This document shows, piece by piece, positions 33,884-35,965 of a stretch of DNA of 64,000 nt (its first letter is position 1; each line of letters starts with the position of its first letter). The notes beneath the pieces were generated by a model, which worked only from the letters and a program-made list of their open reading frames with translations, did no database searches and was not told the origin of the DNA. The position numbers and the translations under genes are program-made. This DNA is from Myxococcota bacterium (GTDB taxonomy: Bacteria; Myxococcota_A; UBA796; CAJQPC01): contig JAZAMN010000030.1 in assembly GCA_036229005.1 (NCBI GenBank), positions 59,723 to 123,722 of the forward strand. The letters are read 5' to 3'.

Positions 33884-34154
33884 CTGTCCCCCAGGGGTGT
33901 CTGCGGGGACCGTACAACAGGTGGGGCCTTGGCTTTGGCTGTCTGCCGGCCGTTGACAGTCTTTCGCTGCCGCTGGCGAGCTGTGCGCTCCACTCCAGGC
34001 TGGACCTTCGTTTTGGGAAACCCGGACCTTCGCGCCCTCGGGACCGGTTCCTACAGGGGTGGAGGTTCCCATGGAAGACAGCATCAACCCCACCCCGGGT
34101 ACATACGAGTCCCCGGCCCGGGAGAATCACATCGGAGGGGAAGGGGGGCGCGCG

Positions 34155-35396
34155 ATGCGCCTGCTCCTGGTGTCCCTGGACTGGCTGCGGGACAAGGACC
34201 CCAGGGTGTCGCTGGGGCACGGGTCGCTGTTGGCCAGGCTCCAGCAGGTGGAGGGGCTGGAGGTGCTCGCGCTCCGACGGGCCGTCAACGCTCCGGGGTT
34301 CGAGCGGCGGGAGCTCCTGGGGGCGGTGGTCGACGCCACCCGCGGCGCGCCCGCGGACCTGGCCATCGGGGTCTACGTCTGGAATGACCCGGACGTGCGC
34401 TGGCTGATCCGGCAGCTCCGGGAGCAGGGCTTTGCGGGACGCATCCTGCTGGGTGGGCCGCAGATCAGCTACGCACCGGCAGGCATCGCGCGCGTCTACC
34501 CCGAGGCCGACGTCCTCATCCGAGGCTACGGCGAGGACGCGCTGGCGCAGGTGCTTCTGTGTGAGGAGCCGCAGGCCATCCCGGGCGTGGTCTGGCGTGA
34601 GGGGCTCGATCTGGGCATGCCGGCCCAGGTCGCCCTCGAGGCCTTGCCTTCGCCCCTGCTGACCGGGGTGCTGCCGGTGCAGGCCTTCATGCGGTGGGAG
34701 ACGCAGCGGGGCTGCCAGTACAGGTGTTCGTTCTGTCAGCACCGGGAGGCTGGAGCCCGCCTCCAGCGCAGCACGCTGTCCGCCGGTCGCATCGCCGATG
34801 AGATCGAGGCCCTGGTCCAGGGCGGGGCCCGGGACATCGCGGTGCTGGACCCGATCTTCAACAGCAACCCCGACGCGGCGGCCATCCTGCGCCGCTTCTC
34901 CGAGCTGGGCTACACCGGCCGGCTGTCGCTGCAGGCCCGCTTCGAGCTCCTCAACGATGACTTCCTGGACGCCGCCCAGCGCCTGGATGTCCAGCTTGAG
35001 TTCGGCCTGCAGACCGTGCAGCGCGCGGAGATGAAGGCGGTGCAGCGCATCAACAACCTGCCCAAGGTGGCGCGGGAGATCGAGGGGCTCCACCGCCGCG
35101 GCATCCCCTTCGAGGTCTCGCTGATCTACGGCCTGCCCAACCAGACGCTGGCCTCCTTCCAGGAGAGCGTCCGCTGGTGCCTGGACCGCGGGGTGCCGGT
35201 GGTCAAGGCCTTCCCGCTGATGCTCCTGCGGGGGACCAAGCTGGAGCGCGAGCGGGAGCGCTGGGGCCTCGTCGAGAGCGCTGGCCCCATCCCGGTGGTC
35301 GTGGAGAGCGACAGCTTCACCCGCGCCGAGTGGGAGCAGATGCGGGAGCTGGCCGAGAGCCTGATGAATCACAACACAGAGAGAGGTGCAGCATGA
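34155..35396 (+). CDS. Cobalamin(B12)-binding-domain radical SAM enzyme (alternative start 34071)
   Basis: N-terminal AIGVYVWN...ILLGGPQ B12-binding-like domain; ETQRGCQYRCSFC; EFGLQT; SLIYGLPNQT; LLRGT. Confidence 0.9.
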   Translation: MRLLLVSLDWLRDKDPRVSLGHGSLLARLQQVEGLEVLALRRAVNAPGFERRELLGAVVDATRGAPADLAIGVYVWNDPDVRWLIRQLREQGFAGRILLGGPQISYAPAGIARVYPEADVLIRGYGEDALAQVLLCEEPQAIPGVVWREGLDLGMPAQVALEALPSPLLTGVLPVQAFMRWETQRGCQYRCSFCQHREAGARLQRSTLSAGRIADEIEALVQGGARDIAVLDPIFNSNPDAAAILRRFSELGYTGRLSLQARFELLNDDFLDAAQRLDVQLEFGLQTVQRAEMKAVQRINNLPKVAREIEGLHRRGIPFEVSLIYGLPNQTLASFQESVRWCLDRGVPVVKAFPLMLLRGTKLERERERWGLVESAGPIPVVVESDSFTRAEWEQMRELAESLMNHNTERGAA

Positions 35397-35965
35397 AGCC
35401 ACTGTTCATCGTCCTGGAGGCCCTGGACGGCGTGGGGAAGACCACGCTGGCCAAGGGGCTGGCGGCCCGGCTCGGGGGCGTCGCCATGAACACGCCAGGG
35501 GAGGGCCTGCGGGCAGTGTCCGGGCAGATCCTGGATGGCCTGGGGCCCAACCAGCCGGCGCGCTGCCTGTTCTACGCAGGCTCGGTCATCGCGCGGGGAG
35601 AGGAGGCGCGGGCGCTCGTGGAGGGGGGACAGACGGTCGTGATGGACCGCTACTGGCTCTCTACCATCAGCTACGCCCGGGCGCGGGGGGTGGAGGCGGC
35701 CCTGGACCAGGTGGAGGCGCTGGTCCCGGCGCCCGACGTGACGCTGCTGCTGACCCTGGATGAGGAGGAGCGGCAGCGGCGCATGCAGGCTCGGGGGTTC
35801 ACCGCTGCAGATCGGGAGACGCTGGAACCGGGGTTCCGGGACCGGGTGCTGCTGGAGATGCGGCGAGGAGATCGGCGCCCAGAGCTGCTGCCGCTGGACG
35901 TGGATCTGAGCGGGGGCGACCCGGCGGAGTGCATCGAGCGGGTCGTGCGGGCGCTCTCGCGCTGA
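35393..35965 (+). CDS. Thymidylate-kinase-family / CMPK2-like nucleoside monophosphate kinase
   Basis: FIVLEALDGVGKTT P-loop, LFY, VMDRYWLSTISYA, PDVTLLL; ATGA overlap with the radical SAM stop. Confidence 0.88.
   Translation: MKPLFIVLEALDGVGKTTLAKGLAARLGGVAMNTPGEGLRAVSGQILDGLGPNQPARCLFYAGSVIARGEEARALVEGGQTVVMDRYWLSTISYARARGVEAALDQVEALVPAPDVTLLLTLDEEERQRRMQARGFTAADRETLEPGFRDRVLLEMRRGDRRPELLPLDVDLSGGDPAECIERVVRALSR

Follow-up and report, generated by a model that had tools for sequence, protein, structure and literature searches.

Among the described systems close to the one considered here are the viperins, i.e., vertebrate viperin with CMPK2 and prokaryotic viperin (pVip) with its kinase, which combine a radical S-adenosylmethionine (SAM) enzyme with an optional nucleoside monophosphate (NMP) kinase, have HicA-like accessory genes and occur in a patchy, mobile manner. 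As far as the accessible parts of the respective reports go, a kinase is associated with 12% of bacterial viperins (Shomar 2023), and HicA is a reported neighbour of pVip (Gerdes 2023). A further system, Ophion, is validated as anti-phage and proposed to make transcription-halting nucleotides, according to the available portion of its preprint (bioRxiv 10.1101/2025.09.30.679545); defence by a non-viperin radical SAM enzyme thus exists. Here, we describe a pair of genes for a cobalamin-binding radical SAM enzyme and an NMP kinase in a stretch of 64,000 nucleotides (positions 59,723 to 123,722 of contig JAZAMN010000030.1, assembly GCA_036229005.1) from a member of the Myxococcota; this whole stretch is called the window. 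The pair shares with the viperin systems all features named above, its kinase being of the same wider lineage. It differs in that its radical SAM protein is not a viperin and has a cobalamin domain, the kinase stands outside the CMPK2/pVip sub-clade, and the chemistry leading to 3'-deoxy-3',4'-didehydro-nucleoside triphosphates (ddhNTPs) is not expected. With Ophion it has in common the coupling of a non-viperin radical SAM enzyme to nucleotide-handling partners, but Ophion comprises three genes (radical SAM, PHP and phosphoribosyltransferase) without an NMP kinase, and neither 'B12' nor 'cobalamin' occurs in its text.

By sequence, the pair belongs to the family PDC-M51 and is neither viperin, OxsB nor thymidylate kinase (Tmk). 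The radical SAM protein matches the PADLOC model PDC-M51A with E = 3.2e-143 (residues 2-407 on profile positions 6-415 of 420), and the kinase, encoded adjacent and in the same orientation, matches PDC-M51B with E = 1.1e-56. Both matches extend over almost the full length, and no structural difference from PDC-M51 (Payne et al. 2024, bioRxiv 10.1101/2024.01.29.577857) was seen. The accessible part of that source predicts PDC families from genes embedded in BREX, DISARM or type I restriction-modification loci, and 'SAM' and 'dNK' are among the domains given for example PDCs in its Fig. 6E legend. The string 'M51' does not occur in its main text, a full-text literature search for 'PDC-M51' yielded no paper, and literature searches, which miss most subscription journals, yielded no functional study of the family. 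The original prediction had presented the pair as a candidate new system; it is instead an already catalogued anti-phage candidate, to which we add the solo form of the radical SAM gene, an upstream motif (neither of which we found described for PDC-M51) and a proposed mechanism. The catalogue entry thereby gains a specific proposal, i.e., methylation over ring contraction, an accessory kinase and an inducible promoter.

The predicted gene arrangement itself holds. Both open reading frames (ORFs) are present on the + strand, and the TGA stop of the radical SAM gene (35396) overlaps the kinase ATG (35393) as ATGA. Pfam assigns B12-binding (E 3e-8) and Radical_SAM (E 1.7e-15) domains to the first protein and Thymidylate_kin (E 1.4e-14) to the second, in agreement with the motifs SLDWLRDKDPRVSLGHGSL and CxxxCxxC (C187/191/194) and with LFY and DRYWLSTISYA, respectively. 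Two starts are conceivable for the radical SAM gene: ATG 34071, with GGAGG just 5' of it and a layout like that of a motif-bearing homologue (L134), gives 441 aa, and ATG 34155 gives 413 aa, the form present in the protein collection. The 413-aa form was the query in all searches, and residue numbers follow it.

According to Pfam and a structure model (pLDDT = 93.6), the first protein has its cobalamin domain at the N-terminus, ahead of a radical SAM barrel with the CxxxCxxC motif, as in class B methylases, and the three cysteines are kept in 149 of 149 aligned representatives. A profile search of solved proteins places CysS (E about 1e-30 to 5e-30) and TokK (about 1e-29 to 3e-29) closest; AprD4 follows far behind (E 2e-6), and OxsB is absent from the five matches at E<=0.001. 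Foldseek agrees, with a TM-score of 0.80 for TokK/CysS vs 0.64-0.68 for OxsB. In addition, A70-x-G72-x-Y74-x-W76 aligns with A70-x-S72-x-Y74-x-W76 of TokK, its lower-face Trp motif (PMC9204698), and the cobalamin motifs YxW, GG and GE are near-invariant among aligned representatives (W76 134/136, G101 141/142, E127 142/144). From TokK and CysS the protein differs by an identity of only about 23%, by the missing C-terminal third domain (the whole model of the 413-441 aa protein aligns to TokK 10-457 of 664), by the lack of an antibiotic gene cluster and by its NMP kinase partner. Conserved Arg/Lys positions occur in the alignment, where a role in phosphate binding is not separable from one in SAM or cobalamin binding. 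No PADLOC pVip model matches the protein at E<=0.01, the 18 NCBIfam matches do not include the viperin model, and no NCBIfam model reached its cut-off for either protein of the pair. Elsewhere in the genome, the search for viperin returned only weak generic radical SAM matches (best E 4e-18 over about half of the model).

Because the protein is TokK/CysS-like in its lower-face Trp motif and in the closest matches of its model, its type points to radical C-methylation rather than to an OxsB-type rearrangement, as far as sequence and model allow. The analogy to OxsB drawn in the original prediction is weaker by profile, fold and lower-face motif. OxsB and AlsB serve oxetanocin and albucidin synthesis, respectively; OxsB has Asn186 and water below the cobalt, where the present enzyme carries Tyr74 and Trp76 in that loop, and it is extended by additional domains at both termini (aligned 118-616 of 729). 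These contrasts, together with the profile E-values favouring CysS/TokK over AprD4, also bear on the idea that the pair fills the same antiviral role by non-methylating chemistry, be it a radical dehydration like that of viperin or AprD4 or an OxsB-like ring contraction of a nucleotide, which we regard as the least probable of the explanations weighed here.

The reading that we favour, tentatively and by analogy, is a mobile, viperin-analogous antiviral module in which B12-dependent nucleotide methylation is combined with an accessory kinase. The architecture on which it builds, a base-off cobalamin domain in front of a TokK/CysS-type barrel minus the third domain, is shown by sequence and model. 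An enzyme of this type would consume two molecules of SAM in each turnover, one being spent on cobalamin methylation and the other on the 5'-deoxyadenosyl radical, and would place the methyl group on an unactivated carbon. The kinase partner suggests a (deoxy)ribonucleotide as substrate, most simply modified at a ribose carbon, and the product could be a C-methyl nucleotide able to stall a viral polymerase. The kinase would act as an optional booster which enlarges the substrate pool, in the way of CMPK2 with viperin, or else moves the product towards the triphosphate, with housekeeping kinases presumably sufficing where the partner is missing. More speculatively, the pair might be switched on by a protease-gated regulator via the upstream motif. 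The host genome encodes a full-length MetH and therefore uses B12.

The kinase is separate from the housekeeping enzyme, as had been predicted. It scores 59.4 bits against TIGR00041, under the cut-off of 83.25, and the genome's own Tmk, encoded on a contig here called C22, exceeds that cut-off with 147.6 bits; these scores and the tree split given below led us to reject the kinase as the genome's sole housekeeping Tmk. Its position away from a tmk-holB context, also noted in the prediction, carries little weight, since the genome's tmk lies between lpdA-like and lipB-like genes and, by eye, also lacks an adjacent holB. A maximum-likelihood tree was computed from 58 kinase-domain rows; 19 further rows that were near-duplicates, partial or on long branches had been removed beforehand. 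Here, 17 Tmk rows (from genomes of the phylum, E. coli and seven plasmid records including one archaeon) are split with 99/99 from 41 other rows, which comprise the present kinase, ostrich CMPK2, pVip-associated kinases and the kinases of an operon with MoaA-like radical SAM and GreA-like genes. The PADLOC model VakA matches the kinase with E = 6.5e-14, more weakly than PDC-M51B does.

Genome counts in this study stem from profile searches of the pair's own phylum (401 genomes) and own class; occurrence beyond these is known from metagenome loci, protein-collection names and the Atlas. The M51B model matched 32 of the 401 phylum genomes. At 29 of the 30 loci fetched for the best M51B-like matches, a radical SAM gene lies beside or close to the kinase, 14 being of the B12 type, 11 MoaA-like and four viperins (one fused); at the remaining locus the contig breaks off. 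A Streptomyces plasmid kinase of the 41-row group likewise follows a radical SAM gene. Since this group holds the partners of viperin, MoaA-like and B12 radical SAM enzymes, one kinase lineage is, judged by sequence, serving three radical SAM classes, and the B12-partner kinases fall into two to three separate tree groups, which suggests repeated pairing.

The MoaA-like operon was found in 11 of the 401 phylum genomes (L173-L183 / L215-L224) and consists of four genes, for an M51B-like kinase, a GreA-like protein, a MoaA-like radical SAM protein below the MoaA cut-offs and an AAA_28 kinase; a plasmid locus (L236) carries only the MoaA-like radical SAM gene and the kinase gene. No PADLOC family matched beyond weak pVip matches, and the neighbours noted by eye are Cmr, Pgl/BREX-like, McrBC-like and toxin-antitoxin genes. 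We consider this operon a candidate third radical SAM nucleotide system.

The M51A model matched 32 of the 401 phylum genomes at E<=1e-40, of which two represent another family, leaving 30, and the class-wide search added 12 genomes. Overlapping or abutting radical SAM and kinase genes recur across the phylum. The radical SAM gene is present in none of three same-genus genomes (75-95% complete); this absence, the patchy occurrence and the loss or absence of the kinase in homologues characterize the module as mobile and the kinase as optional. Searches of viral contigs, plasmids and phages each returned no radical SAM gene of the family. On the tree of the radical SAM proteins, the kinase was gained or lost 13-14 times, and short kinase remnants 3' of an intact radical SAM gene (L135:10551-10814, L136:10628-10849) suggest recent loss.

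Several observations weigh against the favoured reading, beginning with the enzymes themselves. The closest solved proteins act on carbapenem and cystobactamid intermediates, and no characterised nucleotide-modifying enzyme is closely related. Within the 41-row group, CMPK2 and the pVip kinases form a sub-clade of their own (100/99) with the present kinase outside and the backbone not resolved, so that the predicted kinship to CMPK2 and pVip kinases stands for the wider lineage, and 'CMPK2-like' is right in this wide sense only. Pairwise comparison gives 34% and 60 bits to CMPK2, only modestly more than the 32% and 45 bits to the genome's Tmk, and the kinase module with MoaA-like and GreA-like genes also occurs on a viral contig (L237). 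The distribution has to be read in the same direction. An intact adjacent kinase is found in 20 of 42 genomes (13 of 30 in the phylum search and 7 of 12 in the class search); among the rest, two retain kinase remnants, one encodes a kinase close by in the opposite orientation, and in at least two the contig ends within the locus. A total of 80 metagenome loci divide into 19 paired, 28 solo and 33 too short to tell. A kinase-less clade of 37 rows (L058-L115, 100% local support) often lies among housekeeping genes. The pair is conserved, recurring across the phylum, and also mobile, and it matches PDC-M51; the predicted two-gene module that makes and phosphorylates a nucleotide is too strict because the kinase is accessory and absent in about half of the genomes.

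This pattern would also fit a stress-regulon methylase with a non-nucleotide, metabolic substrate which sits in variable islands and has the kinase as a loosely associated passenger: the repeated gain and loss of the kinase, the remnants in two genomes, the kinase-less homologues among housekeeping genes and the lack of a significant defence enrichment (see below) all speak for it. The recurrence of overlapping or abutting genes, the restriction of the kinase lineage almost entirely to the vicinity of radical SAM genes and the repeated pairing suggested by its tree groups speak against it, and we consider it rather improbable. The kinase-less clade comes from lower-GC contigs, two of them with archaeal-type markers below cut-offs; it is nested within bacterial sequences, its genomic positions vary, and our guess is that it presumably represents marine group II.

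For the defence context, PADLOC matches within five genes were compared between 28 homologue loci and 14 control loci, several of the latter from the same contigs; L142 and L143 (another family) and L144 were left out, and 'specific' matches were judged by eye after removing generic kinase, sigma54 ATPase, ABC and methyltransferase matches. Neither comparison shows a significant enrichment: specific defence genes occur at 9 of the 28 homologue loci and at 2 of the 14 controls (Fisher p=0.28), and a PADLOC match of any kind is seen for 26 of 217 proteins at the former against 11 of 140 at the latter (p=0.29). Many homologue loci have ordinary neighbours, which weighs against a defence reading. 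The specific matches at genome loci are a type IV restriction endonuclease, CBASS E1-E2/JAB with SoFic, DrmD, a DrmC fragment, JetD, PDC-M21, Mrr with AriAB, CARF-RtcR, IetA and JukA. The scan of 32 metagenome loci showed a pVip gene immediately in front of a kinase-less B12 radical SAM gene of the family (L062:2476-5636), a HicA-like gene after the radical SAM and kinase genes (L075), brxABC directly downstream (L101) and an AbiEi fragment, each at one locus. Individual cases of homologues beside pVip, HicA-like, BREX, CBASS and PARIS genes thus exist, without a significant enrichment. Small DUF4258-like genes accompany 12 of 30 B12 loci, 1 of 11 MoaA-like, 1 of 4 pVip and 0 of 14 control loci, a count partly seeded by these loci (six of ten seeds), and a sequence search found no solved relative of this partner. 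GreA-like genes as in the MoaA-like operon are also present at 2 of the 30 B12 loci.

The immediate surroundings in the window are a further point on the opposing side, as the neighbours are Tc-like/Rhs toxin and immunity genes and not anti-phage systems. The predicted 'edge of a conflict island' is borne out for toxin-immunity neighbours (TcA-like, SpvB/Rhs, SUKH), but no anti-phage system adjoining the pair was identified, with the PADLOC scan covering only the next downstream gene. Such a position, and the homologous pair at L125 (genome G291) inside a biosynthetic-looking cluster, would suit a nucleoside or nucleotide antibiotic or competition module of the oxetanocin or albucidin kind, employed together with the neighbouring toxin locus to attack other cells. 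The partner of OxsB is a phosphohydrolase (OxsA), which would release the product, unlike a kinase, which would trap it in the cell. Moreover, no exporter or hydrolase is conserved among the 217 neighbours, and the Tc-like neighbour is not conserved either: a same-genus genome has the TcA-like gene without the pair, a DUF6817 gene occupying its slot. We regard this explanation as quite improbable. The operon at L125 comprises genes for an epimerase, the B12 radical SAM protein, the kinase, a GT4-radical SAM fusion and a PhyH-like protein and one more gene, possibly a nucleotide-sugar tailoring pathway. A low probability is also assigned to methylation of a macromolecule, or production of a modified building block for host DNA or RNA (self-marking, or RNA polymerase or tRNA as target), with only an indirect role in defence or regulation: no cognate nuclease or target gene is conserved among the neighbours, and the kinase link is simplest to understand for a free nucleotide.

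Upstream of the radical SAM gene lies the bipartite motif TGGGAAAC-N24-GGTTCC, its single occurrence in the window (0.01 expected). The full form has four copies in the genome, two of them just 5' of genes, namely the present radical SAM gene and a small ORF on C22. The octamer TGGGAAAC alone precedes 8 of 69 non-redundant high-GC radical SAM genes of the family, with none on the reverse strand, the genome rate giving an expectation of about 0.1; the motif was found post hoc on this same gene set, and its function is putative. The octamer is also located in front of the first unannotated ORF of the C22 module described below and of a MoaA-like operon (L222), as well as beside a pVip locus (L187), and occurs three times in 210 kb of controls.

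Close relatives carry the pair joined to a protease module, whose protease is of the S8 or CHAT type; its other members are DUF4258, a small basic ORF and two ORFs, each about 200 aa long, that have no annotation. In the present genome, this module stands apart from the pair and without payload at C22:63931-67578 (L270) with all these parts, its protease being an S8 peptidase membrane protein and its basic ORF measuring 66 aa. The TGGGAAAC motif shared by pair and C22 module is a sequence feature hinting at inducible control. Protease-linked sigma/anti-sigma control of defence loci is known in Myxococcota, as described in the accessible parts of the reports on DdvA/DdvS (PMC11506125) and, likewise, PCc-sigma (bioRxiv 2023.06.23.546230). 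The labels 'sigma-like' and 'anti-sigma-like' given by eye to the C22 ORFs were not confirmed (no Pfam match at E<=0.05, no PDB match); weak sigma-70 matches were obtained only in other loci (L187, L133), and a scan for sigma-70 promoters gave no match. For 11 of the 69 family genes (L036, L040, L043, L061, L120, L127, L129, L130, L136, L140, L267), a second motif, TGTCCGY-N16-CGTC, occurs at a distance of 46-132 nt upstream, with two occurrences on the reverse strand; it is not found upstream of the radical SAM gene of the window. Its architecture looks like that of an extracytoplasmic function (ECF) sigma promoter.

If the favoured reading is true, the tie of the CMPK2-like kinase lineage to viperin would be younger than the lineage itself, and more than one radical chemistry would rely on these kinases. 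A wider picture can be drawn, which we rate as doubtful: bacteria and archaea might possess at least three interchangeable radical SAM payloads for antiviral nucleotides (viperin, MoaA-like with its GreA-like partner, and B12) on one kinase lineage, and the B12 enzyme, induced through the upstream motif by a protease-gated regulator, would make a natural C-methylated chain terminator, as a prokaryotic parallel to interferon-induced viperin-CMPK2. C-methyl nucleotides are an important class among synthetic antivirals and are hard to make chemically.

Table 1. Coordinates of the pair, its upstream motif and the neighbouring features in the window.
Feature	Position	Strand	Evidence or remark
Cobalamin-binding radical SAM enzyme, PDC-M51A family, TokK/CysS-type	34071..35396	+	Pfam, PDC-M51A, profile and fold matches
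NMP kinase, PDC-M51B family, 190 aa	35393..35965	+	Pfam Thymidylate_kin, PDC-M51B, tree, ATGA overlap
Bipartite motif TGGGAAAC-N24-GGTTCC, candidate promoter/operator	34014..34051	+	Conserved upstream; unique in window
TcA-like toxin-complex gene, divergent; context, not part of the module	25952..33883	-	Pfam TcA_TcB_BD, ABC_toxin_N, Neuraminidase-like
SpvB/Rhs-core (TcB/TcC-like) gene	18575-25951	-	Neighbour of TcA-like gene
Toxin-immunity locus: TcA-like, SpvB/Rhs-core, low-GC small-ORF array downstream with SUKH-type immunity genes	12667-33883	opposite strand to pair	

The GC content of the pair (0.70) is like that of its surroundings (Table 1). Downstream follow an unannotated ORF and a TetR regulator. 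The former (292 aa, 35993-36871, - strand, convergent with the kinase) carries an HELVH motif resembling HExxH and has no Pfam, NCBIfam or PADLOC match. In the small-ORF array of the toxin-immunity locus, one ORF has a clear SUKH match, and a 121-aa ORF is duplicated (14932-15297, 18197-18562).

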